Of a stretch of DNA of 44,436 bases, positions 8,954-38,146 are shown piece by piece. Under the pieces are notes generated by a model. The model was not told the DNA's origin, did not search any database, and saw nothing but the letters and a program-made list of their open reading frames with translations. The DNA comes from a virus. The translations under genes and the position numbers were made by a program. Location: IMG/VR virus record IMGVR_UViG_3300040801_004946; one strand, 5' to 3'. Position 1 is the stretch's first letter. Each line of letters opens with the position of its first letter.

Positions 8954-11900
8954 TCTAAACTTGAATCTTGTACGATTGTTGCACCAATTTCATTAAATGT
9001 ACCTACTCCAGTTATCGTTCCATTGATATAAGTTGTTGTATACGAAACAATATTAATTACAGTAGAATAAAAAGATGTAACTTTAAATGCATCATTAGAT
9101 GGATTAGGAATTATCATGATACAATTATCAAATATAAGTGTCATTGTATATGTTAGTGTTCCAACAGAATTTAGTGCTACTGCTTCATATGTTCCAGCTG
9201 CATTTGTCGATTCAAATCTTGTTCCAACGAATCTTGCTTTAATTTCTGCACCTGCGGTAGTGTCACAAATACCATACATTGCCCATCTATTTGATATTAT
9301 ATGTTTAACATTAAATGTTATAACAGGTCTATTTGATGATGTTGCAATAGAATCTATATAAACTGCAGTTCCACCAAGTCGAGCATCAATTATGTCACAA
9401 TCAAATCGTATGTTTGGATTATTACTGAAATCATCGACTTGTATATCAATAAGTGATAAAGTACCAGCGGTAGATTTTATTATAGTAGGACATTTTACAT
9501 GTATATCATATAAATATTTTGGTCCTGATGCAATATCAATAACTATAATTTCTTCTCCAGTTGCAGTTTGATCTATTTTTTCTGAAACATCAAGAGTTAA
9601 TTTACTAGATGTTGAAGTTGATAACCCTGTAAAATTAATTGATTGAGTTAGTGTAACACTCTTACATTGAATCATTGTATCAGCAGTTGCTGAAAGTGTG
9701 TTTGGAGTAAAGAATGATGAAGTATTAAATACGCCATGTCCATACACATTTGCATCTGTACTATTCCAACTAAAAACATTTGTAGTTGCTGAAACAAACG
9801 TTCCTTCATGGAAATATAAATCAACATAGTCTTCCATTCCTAATGGCAATGATAATGAATATGATCCAGGTAAAATCTCAATTTTTATTCTATTTGCTGC
9901 TGTTGCGACTAATGCTGCTGCTGTTATTGCAGTTTGAATATTATTATATGGTTTCAATGGATCATATAATGCTGGAGTATGCGAAATTGTTCCATCAACT
10001 ACATACGCAGCACCAAGATGTGTAGCAGCATATTCAGCAACCCAACTAGAACCATTATAAGATAAATAACTGCCACTTGTTGATGCAGACGTGTCGACAT
10101 CTGAATGTGTGTCAATAGAACCATCTGCAGAAATCTTTGCAGTGTTAGCTGTAACATCTGTGTTTGCAGAAACTCTAGCTTCTGTGTAATATAAATTAGT
10201 TGAACCTTCAGCTAAATCGTCTGTATCAGCTGGTCCAGATGAACCAGATGTTGATGCTTCAAGTATTGCGTTATCAACATAAGAAATGCTAGCAGTTTCA
10301 ACAAACTCTATATCAGGGTTATTTATAGCATCAGTATTTGATGTTCTAAATGTATCAGCATTACTTATTGCTTCTTCAACTATAATAGTTGGATCTTCCC
10401 AAGATGGATCAGCTTTCCACATACTTATTGCTGTTGTAGTTCCTCCAGATTGATCAATGAATCTTGGTCTTACTAATTTGATAAATGACGGATCGTTGTT
10501 ATCAAGTGCAGTTGCCATTTGTATGTGGAAACCAATGCCTTTATCTTGATCAATATAAAAATTACAATCAATAAATGTGAATTTATGACCATAACAGTCA
10601 TTATCAAGTCTTATTTCAAAACATGCTCCTCTAGCATCTTGTACTATGCCTCTATCTACATTAGCTTGAACATCTGTTATTGTTGTGAAATCGACTAATC
10701 TAGATTGACGACTCATATCAGTGTCAGTCATATCAATTGTAAACAGAGTGTTTCCAGATTTATCTACAACTACCCATTCTCCATTATCTGGATTATGAAC
10801 GGCTGGACTGATTTTAAAATCACAACGATCAAATGTAATAGTATTTCTTCTTTGCCAGAATATATTCCAAGCCATACCACCAATAAACTCTGTTCCGTGG
10901 AATTTTAGATTTGCACCTCTTAAATCTTTACTAGGATTTGATTGATTATTTCCAGTAGTTAAAAGCTTGTCAATATAAAGATCGGCTTCAGCTCTAGGTA
11001 ATGGATTAATTGAAACATCTTCAACAGTAGAAAACTGTTGTACTACAGCAGCTGAAAGGAAAACTTTTGAGTTATATGTAAATGACCAAGTATTAGAAAA
11101 TGAAGCAGATGCACTGATGTACCATTCCCCTTTACCATGGATCCAGTAATTTCCAGCACCATTTGTAAAATCTCCAAATGGTTTGTTATCTGTTCCAGAT
11201 GATCTAATTATTGTTTTTGGTTCACAATAATAATGAATCTCTGGATACGTTTTTGATCCTGAACTCGACGCAACTGAATAGAATCCGTCAAATGCTCTAA
11301 CGTATACCAAATATAAATTATCTGAATCAGCTTGATAAGCTGTATTTGCAGCGTCTGATGCGGCTTCAAATGTTAAATAAGGAGTACCACCAACTGATGC
11401 AGACGTATCATTACCATTTACACCATCAACAATTGCTATATTTGAAGCTAGGAAACTAAAACCATCAACTTCAAATCCATTTAAAGGATTAATTTTAATT
11501 TCTCCTGGTTCCCATTCAGTGCCCGACCAGGTTAAAACTTGACCAGATGTTGATGCTGCAGTTGAGCTGACATCCGAATGCGTTGATATAGATCCATCAG
11601 CTGAAACTTTAGCTGTATTTGCTGCTACATTCGTATTAGCATTTACTCTAGCTTCAGTGTAATAAAGATTAGTTGATCCTTCAGCTAAACCGTCTGTATC
11701 AACTGGTCCAGATCCTCCACCATTAGTTCCATGAAATGCTTCAACTTTTATATCTAGTTCGTCAATAGCACTTGTTACATCTGTGGCTGAAAGAGTGCTT
11801 CCGGAATTATCGTAATAATCTGTAAAAGGTAAACTAGCCCAGTTAGTTGTGCCATCACCTAGTTTATGTTTCTTAAGATCTGTATCATATCCTATTTCGC

Positions 11901-12007: not shown

Positions 12008-12853
12008 TTATACGCTTCCGCCATCAATTGGATCTTCATTTTGTGAAGCTGGATCAGGTGAACCACCATCAATTGGATCTTCATTTTGTGAAGCTGGATC
12101 AGGTGAACCACCATCAATATCACTATCAACTTCGTAAACTGAAAACTTTAAACTACCAAATCCATCAAATAATATATCATATTCATTTGTATTTACTGTA
12201 ACGGTGACAAATTCTCCTTTTGTAGTGAATGTTGTTAGATATCCATTTACATTACCAATATCAAATACAAAATCTCCAGCTACATTACCAACTATAAAAC
12301 TTGTACCATCAATCAACACTAATGCTGTTTCTCCTGCTCCACCGGTAAATGTGAAAATAAAAATATTTTTATCGAAATCAACATTTATAATATCACCTCC
12401 TGCTAATTGTATTACTCTAGATGTTGTTGTATTAGTAACAAAAACTAAATCAATTTCATCATCTGTATCAAGTTGCATTCTAGCAACTGAACCTCTCCAA
12501 TATAAAGCGTCTCCTTCTCTAACTCCGCCTTGCGGTCTAATATAATTGCCATCTGGAGAAAAATAACACCAATCTCCAGCATCTGGTCCATTTGGCACTG
12601 TTTTCCCATTTACAAAAACGCGTATACCTGTTCCCGCAAGAGGTTGTTCTTGAACTAGTATATCTGTTGCTAAATCGCCGTCAACTGTTGTCACATTGGC
12701 TGTCATTGCACGATTTTCTTTTGAATCGTATTCTTTTGATGCATTGGCATCTACATATTCTTTCGTCGCACAATCAGAAGCTAATATTGGAGTGATTAAA
12801 TTTAACTTAGGTTGTTTAATAGTTTTGTCTTCAATTTGCTTACCCTTTATCAT
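12008..12853 (-). CDS. Second tail-fibre-like protein (281 aa) with a C-terminal tandem 15-aa repeat
   Basis: The N-terminus contains ...ASDCATKEYVDA..., the D-x-ATK-x-YVD motif common in phage tail-fibre N-termini. It lies directly upstream of the 1007-aa fibre gene on the same strand. The C-terminus is DGGSPDPASQNEDPI repeated 2.2 times. Confidence 0.55.
   Translation of the reverse strand: MIKGKQIEDKTIKQPKLNLITPILASDCATKEYVDANASKEYDSKENRAMTANVTTVDGDLATDILVQEQPLAGTGIRVFVNGKTVPNGPDAGDWCYFSPDGNYIRPQGGVREGDALYWRGSVARMQLDTDDEIDLVFVTNTTTSRVIQLAGGDIINVDFDKNIFIFTFTGGAGETALVLIDGTSFIVGNVAGDFVFDIGNVNGYLTTFTTKGEFVTVTVNTNEYDILFDGFGSLKFSVYEVDSDIDGGSPDPASQNEDPIDGGSPDPASQNEDPIDGGSV
12021..12118. repeat. 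Perfect 45-bp tandem repeat (2.2 copies) encoding the C-terminus of the 281-aa fibre-like protein
   Basis: The units are ccatcaattggatcttcattttgtgaagctggatcaggtgaacca at 12021-12065 and 12066-12110, plus a partial third copy. Confidence 0.9.
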
Positions 12854-12924: not shown

Positions 12925-13222
12925 GAGATTGTTCCCGTAGCCACGATTCTGTTCTATACTTGCATTTATCTAAGCCTCTACCCGGAATCGGCGCCGTTCA
13001 TCCACCATATGATTCCTGTTTGAGTTGCATCCTCAGCAGTACATGCGATAATATATCCTAACAGCAAGCATTGACCGGAGTCAACCTGTGTCTTGGCATA
13101 AGCCTCAGGGTTACTGGGTTGATATATCTACTATTAACCCTTTTTCGTTTATATCTCCTGCTTTAAACGGTGATGTCGTGAGCTTCCTCAGCTTTTCAGC
13201 CGCGCAAGTTCGGAACAATCTC
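12925..13222 (-). ncRNA. rnpB: Candidate bacterial-type RNase P RNA (rnpB-like), ~300 nt
   Basis: This is a GC-richer ORF-free island (~45% GC) with flanks near 25%. The termini pair as a 12-bp P1 helix (GAGAUUGUUCCG at 13222-13211 with CGGGAACAAUCUC at 12937-12925). On the minus strand there are matches to conserved RNase P type A segments. GAGGAAGCUCACGAC matches the GAGGAAAGUCCGGGCUC P4 5' strand. GAUUCCGGGUAGAGGCUUAGA matches AACCCGGGUAGGCUGCUUGA. ACAGAAUCGUGGCUA matches the ACAGAACCCGGCUUA P4 3' strand. The proposed P4 strands can pair (UCACGA/UCGUGG). The P10-P12 region appears reduced. Confidence 0.5.
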
Positions 13223-13282: not shown

Positions 13283-13873
13283 ATGGAGACTAAGTTTAAT
13301 TTAGATTTTGGTTCAATTGAAAAACCTCGTAGTGGAAGTTTAATAGTCTCTAATCCTATGATTGCAGACATAAACTTTTATCGAAGTGTTGTTTTATTGA
13401 CAAAATATTCTCCTGATGAAGGTGCTATTGGATTAATTCTAAATAAACCGACAATGATACATGCAAATGAAACAATGCCGGATTTAGATGAATTTGACAC
13501 TCCATTGTATCATGGCGGTCCAGTTGACCAACATGCCATGTTTATGCTGCATCGAAGAGGTGAAGTAATTGATGACGGAATTCATATTAAAGATGATTTA
13601 TATTGGGGTGGTGATTTAAAGGAAATTCAAAAATATTCATCAATAAATGTTTTAGATTCTTCAGATTTTAAATTTTTATTAGGCTATAGTAGTTGGATGC
13701 CTCATCAACTTGATTCAGAAATTCAAAAACAAGTTTGGAGTGTTTATAATAATTATGATACTTCATTAATTTTTGACAACAATACATCATCAATGTGGAG
13801 AAATGTTTTAAAAGAAATGGGTGGTAAACATAAAATGTATGCAAATTATCCTGTTGATCCCCAATTAAATTAA
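13283..13873 (+). CDS. YqgE/AlgH family protein (UPF0301/DUF179)
   Basis: LIVSNPMIADINFYRSVVLLTKYSPDEGAIGLILNKP aligns with E. coli YqgE [36 protein letters not shown]. The family motifs HGGPV...FMLH and the C-terminal LLGYSSWMPHQLDSEI (vs LYLGYAGWGPGQLEQEI) are present. Confidence 0.85.
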   Translation: METKFNLDFGSIEKPRSGSLIVSNPMIADINFYRSVVLLTKYSPDEGAIGLILNKPTMIHANETMPDLDEFDTPLYHGGPVDQHAMFMLHRRGEVIDDGIHIKDDLYWGGDLKEIQKYSSINVLDSSDFKFLLGYSSWMPHQLDSEIQKQVWSVYNNYDTSLIFDNNTSSMWRNVLKEMGGKHKMYANYPVDPQLN

Positions 13874-17539: not shown

Positions 17540-17621
17540 ACATCAACCAAACAACCATAAATGAATTGTATTAACTTGCTAACTTTTAATATAATCCACT
17601 TGTATTTTAATAGTGGGAAGA

Positions 17622-17730
17622 GAAGGATTCGAACCCCTAAACCCGTGAAGGTAACTTACATACTAGTCGTGCAAGCCGCGACTCTCCTAGTCCATTTACG
17701 TAGACCACTTCGCCGTCTTCCCATTTGTGG
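17622..17730 (-). tRNA. tRNA-like gene (109 nt) with a canonical acceptor stem and T arm but an oversized, non-canonical interior
   Basis: The 7-bp acceptor GGGAAGA/UCUUCCC is perfect, with discriminator A and no encoded CCA. The T loop is GGUUCGAAUCC. The D-arm-like region is GCG-AAGUGGUCUA-CGU. The remaining ~60 nt do not fold as a 5-bp/7-nt anticodon arm. Instead there are extended hairpins (AGUCG-CGGCUUGCA-CGACU; ACUAG...CUAGU). Confidence 0.45.
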
Positions 17731-17735
17731 GGAGA

Positions 17736-17843
17736 GAAGGATTTGAACCTCTAAGCCTGTTAAGGCAACTGAGATACTAGCTATCTGCCTCAGCCGCGAC
17801 TCTCTCATATCTTACGATACCTTCGCCGTCTCCCCTTGTTGTC
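17736..17843 (-). tRNA. Second tRNA-like gene (108 nt), paralogous to the first and 5 nt upstream of it
   Basis: The acceptor GGGGAGA/UCUCCCC is perfect. The T loop is GGUUCAAAUCC. It shares GACGGCGAAG, GAGAGUCGCGGCU and CUAGUAU blocks with the neighbour. It contains a GNRA hairpin (GUAUC-GUAA-GAUAU) and an extended arm (GGCUGAG...CUCAGUUGCC). Confidence 0.45.
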
Positions 17844-36890: not shown

Positions 36891-37181
36891 TTTTAGTTCA
36901 ACTAAAACACTATTTTTATTTTCAATATTGTATGTTTTAGTTTCATAACTCGGGTAGCTAACGGTTAAAATGGAATCAGAAGCACATGCATCAAATTTAA
37001 ATTCTCCAAATAAATCTGAATAATATACTTTATCTCCACATTTAATTTTTACACCAATTAATTCTTCTCTGGTTTTGTCGTTTATTGCAATCCCGAAAAC
37101 AGTTTTTGTTGCTTCTTTTTCTTTTGTGTTGAATGAAAAGAATAAAAATGCTGTAATGAATATCAAAAGATATTTTTTCAT
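36882..37181 (-). CDS. Small secreted protein, possibly with a CarboxypepD_reg-like beta-sandwich
   Basis: Signal peptide MKKYLLIFITAFLFFSF. It is 99 aa and convergent with the glycan array. Confidence 0.45.
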   Translation of the reverse strand: MKKYLLIFITAFLFFSFNTKEKEATKTVFGIAINDKTREELIGVKIKCGDKVYYSDLFGEFKFDACASDSILTVSYPSYETKTYNIENKNSVLVELKSK

Positions 37182-37395
37182 TTAGAAATATTATTTTTAT
37201 TTATTTATAGTATTATTTGATAAAATATTCAATTATCTAATTATCAAAGTATTAAAGTTATATTAATAGTCGGTTAACAATTTAAATATATGCAATAAAT
37301 TGTTTATTTTATGATAAATGTTTTAAATATTTATGTTTTTATTAAAAATAATTATGAAAAAAGTGTTAAAAATTATATATATTACAATTACATAT

Positions 37396-37519
37396 TGTAA
37401 GGTGGTGAAATTGGCAACCACACCCGACTGTCTCTCGGGCGGAGAATTGGGATAAAGTAAACATGTCGATCGGATGTTTGCCTAACTGCTCCTTGAAGGT
37501 TCGACTCCTTCCCTTACAG
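37396..37519 (+). tRNA. tRNA-Asp(GUC)-like gene with a 55-nt insertion in the variable region, 124 nt in total
   Basis: The acceptor UGUAAGG/CCUUACA is a perfect 7 bp, with discriminator G. The D arm is GUG-AAAUUGGCAAC-CAC. The anticodon arm CCCGA-CUGUCUC-UCGGG has 5 bp, a 7-nt loop, U33 and anticodon GUC. The T arm is GAAGG-UUCGACU-CCUUC. Between the anticodon and T arms is a 55-nt segment closed by GGAG/CUCC. Confidence 0.5.
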
Positions 37520-37558
37520 CTGGAAATCGATAATATATACTAAAAGTAATATGTATCG

Positions 37559-38146
37559 ATGAAGAACGAATTAACCTCAAAAGTACTTGAAGAATTTTTA
37601 GATGATTTAACACTTGATGTTGATTTTGATGCTAAAACTGGTCGATTTGAAGTTAAAACACCAGAAACAGATTATCAAGATTTAATAGAATATCCTACCT
37701 TAACACAGTTAATCAATAAAAACTATGAGGAATTTTTAGATGCAATATTTATTGATTTAGAACCAATTATACAAATTGAAATTTCTAAAATTGAACCTGA
37801 AGATCAAAAAGGTTATGAATATATGATTGATAGTATGTCAATAAGACAAAAGCCTGGTTCATTAAATAGACTTGGGATCCATTTGCATCAATTTTGGCAC
37901 AAAGATTATCCAGAATTAAATATAGAAGATGTTGAATTTTTCATTGATAAAATGACTGAAAAAGGATTCACTGTTGATGAGATTCATGATATTTACACTT
38001 TAACAAAAAAATTGGAAAAAACGAAAGATTTAATTGATTTTGTTAACACTTATGACGAATACAGTAAAGTTTATTTAGACAGAAGAAGTTTAACTGGTTT
38101 CCAAAGAGAAAGTTATACAATTAAAGGATTTAAAGACTTTCGATAA
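37559..38146 (+). CDS. Hypothetical acidic protein (195 aa)
   Basis: ORF only. Confidence 0.4.
   Translation: MKNELTSKVLEEFLDDLTLDVDFDAKTGRFEVKTPETDYQDLIEYPTLTQLINKNYEEFLDAIFIDLEPIIQIEISKIEPEDQKGYEYMIDSMSIRQKPGSLNRLGIHLHQFWHKDYPELNIEDVEFFIDKMTEKGFTVDEIHDIYTLTKKLEKTKDLIDFVNTYDEYSKVYLDRRSLTGFQRESYTIKGFKDFR

Follow-up and report, generated by a model that had tools for sequence, protein, structure and literature searches.

A viral metagenome contig of 44,436 nucleotides (IMG/VR record IMGVR_UViG_3300040801_004946), the whole of which we call the window, carries at positions 37396 to 37519 a tRNA-Asp(GUC)-type gene with a variable region of 55 nt. It is best read as a new structural variant of tRNA-Asp, encoded by a phage and equipped with a conserved, extra-long variable arm. 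More specifically, and with moderate confidence, we favor a class II-like phage tRNA-Asp(GUC) in which the 4-5-nt loop is replaced by a conserved, irregular arm of 38 to 55 nt that would be kept in the mature RNA and act as a phage-specific handle. By the usual view, long variable arms mark a small, fixed set of isoacceptors (Ser, Leu, bacterial Tyr, and Sec), and in the class II bacterial tRNAs (tRNA-Ser, tRNA-Leu, and tRNA-Tyr) the variable-arm region measures about 13 to 21 nt. A conserved tRNA-Asp arm two to three times longer than the Ser, Leu, Tyr, and Sec arms would extend the known limits of tRNA architecture. Full-text literature searches returned no description of a long-armed tRNA-Asp or of the motif found inside its arm.

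Read directly from the sequence, the cloverleaf is complete, with a 7/5 acceptor/T configuration and the anticodon GUC, in agreement with a preliminary description, made from the letters alone, that had found all canonical arms of a tRNA-Asp intact. The gene runs UGUAAGG-UG-GUGA-AAUUGGCAA-CCAC-A-CCCGA-CUGUCUC-UCGGG-[arm]-GAAGG-UUCGACU-CCUUC-CCUUACA-G, where the arm, [C GGAG AAUUGGGAUAAAG UAAACAU GUCGAUCGG AUGUUUG CCUAACUG CUCC UU], is exactly 55 nt and includes both the GGAG/CUCC closure and the internal hairpin (distal UAAACAU/AUGUUUG) that the same description had pointed out. The gene has the base-paired extra arm of more than 10 nt between positions 44 and 48 and the 3-bp D stem of class II architecture. 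All of the nucleotides of the L shape are present (U8, A14, A15/U48, G18, G19, U33, U54, U55, C56, A58, and G53:C61), and the tertiary ones, including R15-Y48, are likewise conserved in the L358 and L002-type homologs described below. CCA is absent from the gene, the bases after G73 being CUG; in the host tRNA genes inspected, the bases following C74 vary. By its sequence, this conserved gene with a class II-like body is of tRNA-Asp type.

The gene escapes routine annotation. ARAGORN detected zero tRNA and zero tmRNA across the whole window, i.e., no canonical tRNA anywhere on the contig, and Rfam with default filters and gathering thresholds left 37396-37519 unmatched. With relaxed filters, obtained by submitting 701 nt only, the RF00005 tRNA model matched the gene at 40.2 bits (gathering score, 29; E value, 5.4e-7), which places it above threshold in the covariance-model check. 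The match is full length (model positions 1-71, not truncated) and has a 53-nt insertion in the variable region. ARAGORN, a check proposed in the preliminary description, misses the native gene and calls tRNA-Asp(gtc) once the arm is shortened to 15 nt or less, as when the variable region was swapped in silico for 3, 5, or 15 nt. Both misses can be ascribed to the length of the arm and to speed filters. Minimum-free-energy (MFE) folding gives the cloverleaf plus the arm. The features of a tmRNA are lacking, since ARAGORN calls none and an anticodon arm is present.

The case for more than a chance fold is made by homologs in two other lineages, which keep every helix through compensatory changes. 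One lineage is marine and comprises the IMG/VR contig L002 and 30 marine metagenome contigs (L163-L192), all with a 39-nt variable region. The L002-type sequence is UGUGGGG-UG-GUGA-AAUUGGCAG-ACAC-A-CCCGA-CUGUCUC-UCGGG-[C GGAG AAUUGAGGAUAAACUUUUAAGCUAACU(R) CUCC GU]-AUAGG-UUCGAAU-CCUGU-CCCCACA-G, and the L002 homolog scores 42 bits with the Rfam tRNA model. Inside this lineage, G7:C66 has become A:U and U50.G64 has become U:A. The tRNA is near-identical among the marine contigs, yet their downstream flanks differ and the neighboring protein shows 84-98% identity. The other lineage is syntenic with the window and was found via homologs of the downstream open reading frame (ORF) 37559-38146, the contigs of which were then fetched. 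Two of them (L358 and L359) have the gene order of the window, namely, the tRNA, a 194-amino-acid (aa) ortholog of ORF 37559-38146 (34% identity), and an opposite-strand Metallophos gene. Their tRNA, UGACAUG-UG-CUGG-AAUUGGCAA-ACAG-A-CCGUC-CUGUCUC-GACGG-[C GAGG AAUUAGGGAUAAACAAUUAGCUAACUA CCUC UU]-GUAGG-UUCGACU-CCUAC-CGUGUCA-G, has a 38-nt variable region. In two further contexts of this ORF (L360 and L361), the syntenic spot is without a tRNA.

In a structure-guided pair table of the three lineages, every Watson-Crick or G.U pair is kept and none is broken. Double compensatory changes affect pairs 3, 4, 5, and 7 of the acceptor stem, 10:25 in the D stem (G:C to C:G in L358), 29:41, 30:40, and 31:39 in the anticodon stem (L358, with the loop unchanged), 49:65 and 50:64 in the T stem, and pairs 2 and 3 of P1, the helix at the arm base (GGAG/CUCC to GAGG/CCUC in L358). 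Position 13:22 is unpaired throughout (A.C, G.A, and A.A). When the arms alone were analyzed with RNAalifold, P1 was returned as a 4-bp helix with two compensatory changes, followed by a 5x5 internal loop (AAUUR / AACUR) and by P2, of 2 bp, with G.U to A:U variation. The invariant positions in all three lineages are U1:A72, G2:C71, G73, the anticodon loop, the D-loop AAUUGGCA, and the T-loop. The window, the L002 type, and L358 also share the sequence of the inner arm motif, AAUU(N)GGGAUAAA…CUAACU. The arm tip varies in length; in the window it is a hairpin of 7 bp with a loop of 9 nt, and elsewhere a stem of 3 bp with a loop of 4 nt. By eye, the inner motif fits none of the K-turn, loop E, and tetraloop-receptor consensuses.

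Since the arm occupies the same position in three phage lineages, with a conserved base and a covarying closing helix, these comparisons argue that it is an ancient, inherited, and selected structure and not a recent insertion. Relatives do hold homologous tRNA-Asp structures, which speaks against the chance pairing of the acceptor strands that the preliminary description had allowed for. That the gene is a tRNA pseudogene in decay, with inserted junk, or a cloverleaf arisen by chance would be in keeping with the failure of ARAGORN and default Rfam and with an unremarkable folding z-score; it is nevertheless extremely unlikely, given the score against the tRNA model and the 30 near-identical marine copies, in which flanks and neighboring protein diverge while the tRNA stays constant, and it is contradicted by the compensatory changes in all helices.

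Searches of IMG/VR with the arm motif GGAGAATTG..GGATAAA gave 79 loci, of which all but L002 and the short contig of the window itself are chance matches; with the combined 5' and 3' arm motif they gave 42 loci, of which L002 alone is real, and with a degenerate three-lineage pattern they gave L002 only. A BLAST search of GenBank phages matched ordinary tRNA arms in part and the insert not at all. The long-armed gene is also a recurrent assembly breakpoint, many marine contigs starting or ending inside it or right at it (L165-L169, L171, L182, L184, L185, L187, L188, and L190-L192).

The preliminary description had proposed a non-canonical intron, a mobile insertion, or an integrase attachment site, and none of these is supported. 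At its exon-intron junctions, a bulge-helix-bulge (BHB) intron has a 4-bp helix with a 3-nt bulge on either side, one per strand. At the ends of the insert, a single nucleotide precedes GGAG on the 5' strand, and distally there is an AA / CUG 2x3 internal loop without bulges. Group I and II introns possess a catalytic core recognizable by covariance models and exceed about 200 nt; the insert is 55 nt, and no Rfam intron family matched 37100-37800 at E values up to 10. As to mobility, the insert is single copy in the window plus 2.7 Mb of fetched loci, homologous tRNAs apart, and its base is conserved at the same tRNA position in the three lineages. The 3' end of the gene is not repeated in the window (with up to 3 mismatches), and no integrase domain was found in the flanking ORFs scanned.

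A broader version of the intron idea is that the 55-nt segment is an intervening sequence, spliced to yield a 73- to 76-nt tRNA or excised by an RNase III-like activity to leave a two-piece tRNA joined through its stems. The segment is indeed a self-contained hairpin whose in silico deletion leaves a normal tRNA-Asp, and tRNA genes with loop hairpin insertions occur in the likely host clade, so that processing of expanded tRNAs may exist there. We consider this improbable. Besides the junctions without a BHB, a length below self-splicing size, and the lack of an intron family match, the conservation of the arm interior and the covariation of P1 indicate selection on RNA structure and not on a spacer; moreover, no splicing endonuclease or RNA ligase was recognized in the neighboring ORFs scanned, in which one Metallophos neighbor gave only a weak RNA ligase PHROG match.

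The anticodon arm links the gene to a bacterial tRNA-Asp. Its 17-nt stem-loop (CCCGACUGUCUCUCGGG) occurs at more than 120 loci of a species-representative genome collection, mostly in Flavobacterium, Chryseobacterium, Tenacibaculum, Saprospiraceae, and other Bacteroidota, with some in Gemmatimonadota and Deinococcus. Most of these loci lie within ordinary tRNA-Asp genes (e.g., GGCUCAUUGGGGUUACUGGCUAACCUUCCCGACUGUCUCUCGGGAGAAACGGGUUCGACUCCCGUAUGAGCCG), and a few are chance occurrences in non-tRNA sequence. Since the window copy is identical at 17 of 17 positions to more than 100 chromosomal tRNA-Asp genes of Flavobacteriia and their relatives, including Flavobacterium, Chryseobacterium, and Tenacibaculum, the host is likely a member of the Bacteroidota. 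Using a census script that required perfect 5-bp anticodon and T stems and at most 1 mismatch in the acceptor stem, we found a variable loop of 4-5 nt in all 105 classifiable chromosomal copies, so that the short loop that the preliminary description had taken as the rule for bacterial tRNA-Asp applies to the likely host clade. The same script gave 5, 14, 19, 39, and 55 nt for phage and metagenome tRNA-Asp variable regions. The rest of the host class I body, with G1:C72 and a 4-bp D stem, is not matched by the window gene either. The idea that U37 is a phage-specific mutation evading a nuclease was rejected, CUGUCUC being the normal host loop.

The bacterial AspRS identity set, as defined in E. 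coli, consists of G34, U35, C36, C38, G73, G2:C71, and G10. It is complete in the window copy and, except for G10, invariant across lineages. An altered amino acid identity is conceivable, in which Asp codons would be read by a tRNA charged by SerRS (via the arm and G73) or by a phage paralog of the AsnRS core, with codon ambiguity or reassignment as the outcome. G73, G2:C71, the long arm, and the 3-bp D stem with an unpaired 13:22 are class II, Ser-like traits, an AsnRS-core gene adjoins the tRNA in the marine lineage, and the nev-tRNAs, class II bodies with class I anticodons, offer a precedent for misacylation (PMC3333845). We give this reading little credence, as the anticodon loop and C38 are exactly those of host tRNA-Asp and point to AspRS, the contig ORFs are normal under the standard code, and the arm begins with a regular 4-bp helix followed by a 5x5 internal loop, an irregularity of the sort that blocks SerRS in engineered tRNAs (PMC7590224).

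Some chromosomal tRNA genes carry insertions of their own, either short palindromic hairpins of the form UCCCGA-N4-6-UCGGGA in the D, anticodon, or T loop or T-loop insertions of about 50 nt. They were seen in Flavobacterium and relatives (L193, L194, L208, L226, L237, L243, L280, L294, and L307), in two other loci (L279 and L312), and in Gemmatimonadota (L286, L295, and L302). In some tRNA-Asp-like copies, the T arm is wholly replaced.

In the reading that we favor, translation and a role as a handle are the most likely functions of the gene and its arm, respectively. The gene would be transcribed from an AT-rich promoter of its own, for which the 11-mer TTATATATATT is a candidate. This possible phage promoter element also precedes the L358 and L359 homologs by about 10-20 nt (in L358, at about 3923-3933); a sigma-70 scan of the upstream spacer was uninformative, the spacer being AT-rich. 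The transcript would be matured at its 5' end by RNase P, possibly aided by the RNase P RNA-like gene at 12927-13220, and at its 3' end by trimming followed by CCA addition. Host AspRS would charge it with aspartate by means of the host-identical anticodon loop, G73, and G2:C71, and the tRNA would decode GAU and GAC, which account for 921 of the 13,027 contig codons (7.1%; 85% are GAU). As do the arms of tRNA-Ser, -Leu, and -Tyr, the long arm would project from the elbow and set the phage tRNA-Asp apart from that of the host, either by excluding a host factor that attacks or sequesters it or by binding a phage protein. It may thus represent a new way for phages to keep their own tRNA pool separate from the host's.

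Work on engineered tRNAs makes such a handle plausible. A long variable arm tipped with a hairpin aptamer leaves such tRNAs translationally active, hairpin modules placed there are able to recruit proteins or to sequester them, and SerRS is blocked by a bulge in the variable stem (PMC7590224). The phage arm, in which a 4-bp base helix gives way to an internal loop, fits the latter case, and capture by SerRS would therefore be disfavored.

Several points weigh against this reading. The folding energy is no better than that of shuffled sequences (z = -1.1 for the whole element and -0.8 for the insert), and we did not count thermodynamics as evidence. The family is rare, with two lineages besides the window and one contig only in IMG/VR. 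The acceptor end is U1:A72 where the host has G1:C72, and in the L358 lineage, G10, a minor AspRS identity element in E. coli, is replaced by C10 (C10:G25). Class II synthetases such as AspRS approach the tRNA from the variable-loop side, as in the yeast AspRS-tRNA-Asp complex, and an arm of about 20 bp could consequently hinder AspRS. Finally, the target that the arm would bind or exclude is entirely a proposal, and expression, processing, and aminoacylation of the gene are predictions from its sequence.

The same features could belong to an RNA that does not translate, in line with the tRNA-derived regulatory RNA that the preliminary description had named, either a decoy or sponge for a host nuclease or modifier directed at tRNA-Asp or the cofactor of a phage enzyme that grips the arm. 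We judge this unlikely, albeit with a real chance of being right. The anticodon arm is an exact copy of that of the host while body and arm are phage specific, and the inner arm motif shows sequence conservation in place of covariation, as expected of a site of protein or tertiary contact. Two other loci also have a normal-length tRNA-Asp beside an overlong one (L162, 86 nt with a 19-nt variable region; L316, 85 nt with a 14-nt variable region), and engineered variable-arm aptamers can sequester tRNAs or recruit enzymes (PMC7590224). On the other hand, the full identity set and the elbow and T-loop nucleotides, all retained, are just as compatible with an ordinary substrate of AspRS, EF-Tu, and the ribosome.

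The cofactor version draws mainly on the marine lineage. In L002 (11716-12558, minus strand), and at the same position in L163-L189, lies a gene for a 280-aa class IIb aminoacyl-tRNA synthetase catalytic core without an anticodon-binding domain, and wherever a contig extends upstream, about 10 nt separate the end of this gene from the long-armed tRNA-Asp. The protein matches PF00152 as its only domain and phrog_29758 (of unknown function), the nearest NCBIfam families are AsnRS and asparagine synthetase A, and its closest solved structure is AsnRS. Against its being a partner of the arm, the gene is absent from the window, and the marine contigs are close relatives (the 84-98% protein identity given above), so that their synteny is one observation. 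The family has more than 600 loci in IMG/VR; in 79 further loci encoding the core, the census script found no long-armed tRNA-Asp, and none of those inspected has a tRNA immediately downstream. A general linkage between this core and the long-armed tRNA was accordingly rejected, the family being common without an adjacent tRNA.

A more far-reaching idea, which we consider doubtful, is that the arm is a natural protein-binding aptamer giving the phage tRNA(GUC) a private identity. It would act either by concealing the tRNA from a host factor able to disable tRNA-Asp or by bringing in a phage enzyme, for which the marine AsnRS-like core is a candidate; that core could act by anticodon-independent charging or modification, up to an altered meaning of GAY codons. 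If true, this reading, together with the two other long tRNA-like elements and the RNase P RNA-like gene of the window (see below), would point to a set of expanded tRNAs that is specific to the phage and has its own maturation machinery.

Comparison with known systems helps to place the gene. Like the class II tRNAs for Ser, Leu, and Tyr, it has a stem-loop between the anticodon and T stems, a 3-bp D stem, an unpaired 13:22, and the 7/5 branch; their arm is retained in the mature tRNA, and we infer the same for the phage gene. It differs from them by its class I (Asp) anticodon and identity set, by a region of 38-55 nt, and by an irregular, sequence-conserved arm made of a 4-bp helix, a 5x5 internal loop, a short helix, and a bulge. 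The nev-tRNAs, eukaryotic tRNAs of nematodes, share with it a class II-like body, a class I anticodon, conservation within one lineage, and a tendency to be missed or mistyped by annotation (PMC3333845). Their arms are of the ordinary-length Leu type, and they are charged with Leu in vitro, whereas the tRNA described here has a phage carrier, a far longer arm, G73, and an anticodon arm that copies host tRNA-Asp. The allo-tRNAs and tRNA-Sec are likewise non-standard tRNAs with long variable arms from metagenomes, some of them in phages, but have acceptor branches of 12 or 13 bp in 8/4, 9/3, 8/5, or 9/4 form, long D stems, and UCA or CUA anticodons (PMC5389517). The phage gene, with its 7-bp acceptor and 5-bp T stems, short D stem, and GUC, was for this reason not assigned to them.

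Engineered tRNAs with aptamers in the variable arm, in which the arm recruits or excludes proteins while decoding is kept, are synthetic, and the phage gene is a candidate natural counterpart (PMC7590224). Archaeal BHB introns and bacterial group I tRNA introns resemble it as extra sequence that interrupts a tRNA gene elsewhere than at 37/38; here, in contrast, there is no BHB, group I core, or splicing-enzyme context, and the interior is under selection for both structure and sequence. Phage tRNAs that bypass host defenses (PMC10264068, PMC11464382, and PMC11555353) are also phage copies of host tRNAs in which a difference could block recognition. They differ from the host by point changes in the anticodon loop, whereas the long-armed tRNA-Asp has an unchanged loop and a large extra arm and is linked to no defense system targeting tRNA-Asp.

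Overlong class I tRNAs are not confined to tRNA-Asp. Clusters of other phages contain tRNAs whose extra arms are long, namely, tRNA-Asn of 81 and 90 nt, tRNA-Met of 87 nt, tRNA-Cys of 84 nt, and tRNA-His of 89 nt, often beside a normal-length copy of the same isoacceptor (L162, 1295-3737; L161, 12453-12541; L316, 4573-5198). Together with the failure of ARAGORN and default Rfam on the window gene, these overlong tRNAs in related phages suggest that phage tRNA repertoires may be systematically undercounted. In L316, a 123-kb viral contig, two adjacent CUA tRNAs lie at 10234-10387 on the minus strand and are called "tRNA-Pyl" by ARAGORN; they are possible amber suppressors, which suggests stop-codon recoding in that phage.

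Table 1. Parts of the long-armed tRNA-Asp gene and other RNA-related features of the window
Feature	Position	Strand	Remarks
Whole tRNA-Asp(GUC)-type gene, 124 nt	37396..37519	+	U1 to discriminator G73; RF00005, sequence, and census script (V = 55)
Acceptor stem, 5' strand UGUAAGG, 7 bp	37396..37402	+	Pairs with 37512-37518; U1:A72 and G2:C71 invariant in 3 lineages
D arm GUGA-AAUUGGCAA-CCAC	37405..37421	+	3 Watson-Crick pairs, 13:22 non-pair (class II-like); G18 and G19 present
Anticodon stem-loop CCCGA-CUGUCUC-UCGGG	37423..37439	+	Stem 37423-37427 / 37435-37439; U33, U37, C38
Anticodon GUC	37430-37432	+	Loop CUGUCUC
Variable region, 55 nt, forming the extra-long arm	37440..37494	+	Between anticodon stem and T stem; homologous arms 39 and 38 nt
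Arm base helix P1, 5' strand GGAG	37441..37444	+	Pairs with CUCC at 37489-37492
Inner motif, 5' side AAUUGGGAUAAAG	37445..37457	+	Internal loop AAUU, short helix GG(G), bulge AUAAAG
Distal hairpin UAAACAU-GUCGAUCGG-AUGUUUG	37458..37480	+	Window lineage only; length-variable arm tip; MFE fold
Inner motif, 3' side CCUAACUG	37481..37488	+	(G/C)CUAACU(R) kept in all 3 lineages
T arm GAAGG-UUCGACU-CCUUC	37495..37511	+	U54 U55 C56 G57 A58; G53:C61
Acceptor 3' strand CCUUACA and discriminator G73 (37519)	37512..37519	+	G73 invariant in all lineages
AT-rich 11-mer TTATATATATT	37372..37382	+	About 14-24 nt upstream of the tRNA gene; candidate promoter element
tRNA-like elements B and C, tandem, 108-109 nt	17728-17835, 17614-17722	-	GGGGAGA/GGGAAGA acceptor stem, A73
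RNase P RNA-like gene	12927-13220	-	Spacer between ORFs 12008-12853 and 13283-13873

The preliminary description counted three long tRNA-like elements in the window, and the other two are indeed there, in tandem (B and C in Table 1). In both, the 3' half resembles tRNA-Tyr and the extra arm is of class II type but short. They depart from host tRNA-Tyr by a D-loop hairpin insertion (with a GUAA-type loop), the stem of which covaries between B and C, and by anticodon loops enlarged to 9-15 nt, with CUAGUAU common to both. Against the tRNA model, element C reaches 20.3 bits, which is below threshold. The B/C pattern had 0 matches in IMG/VR, and BLAST against GenBank phages gave partial matches to ordinary tRNA arms only. 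A recoding of stop codons tied to the CUA-containing loops is unsupported, the contig having dense standard-code ORFs that end in TAA (37), TAG (6), and TGA (5).

The RNase P RNA-like gene scores 48.7 bits with RF00373 (archaeal RNase P), below the gathering score of 84, with an E value of 7.7e-11 for the whole window and a match to model positions 1-288. The alignment shows P1-P4, GAGGAA, CUUAGAUAAAUGC, and AACAGAA. The gene may mature the aberrant tRNAs of the contig. The papers listed by a full-text search for RNase P RNA in huge phages, jumbo phages, or megaphages made no mention of such an RNA. Within the element, 43 nt (13105-13147, minus strand; CGAAAAAGGGUUAAUAGUAGA…CCAGUAACCCUGA) share 91% identity with an unannotated spacer that immediately precedes the tRNA cluster in T4-like phages such as PM2 and phages of Proteus and Vibrio. 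In Pectobacterium phage PM2, the match lies at 75787-75829 (L362, 601-643), and an Rfam RNase P was not found in this spacer (L362). The CR-IV/V part of the element also has a weak match in a 735-kb uncultured phage (LR756501).

The window is a complete metagenome contig with about 29% G+C and is 87% coding under the standard code. It looks like part of a large phage genome: its DnaK has its best GenBank-phage matches in uncultured phages of 630-735 kb, and a 1007-aa protein has an Mtd_N domain and tail-fibre/tail-spike PHROG matches. Further genes encode a NUMOD3 protein, many glycosyltransferases, a kinase, and a methyltransferase. Near the start of the contig (918-3497, plus strand), an 859-aa protein combines shoulder and repeat domains of the major vault protein with a Band 7/SPFH domain.

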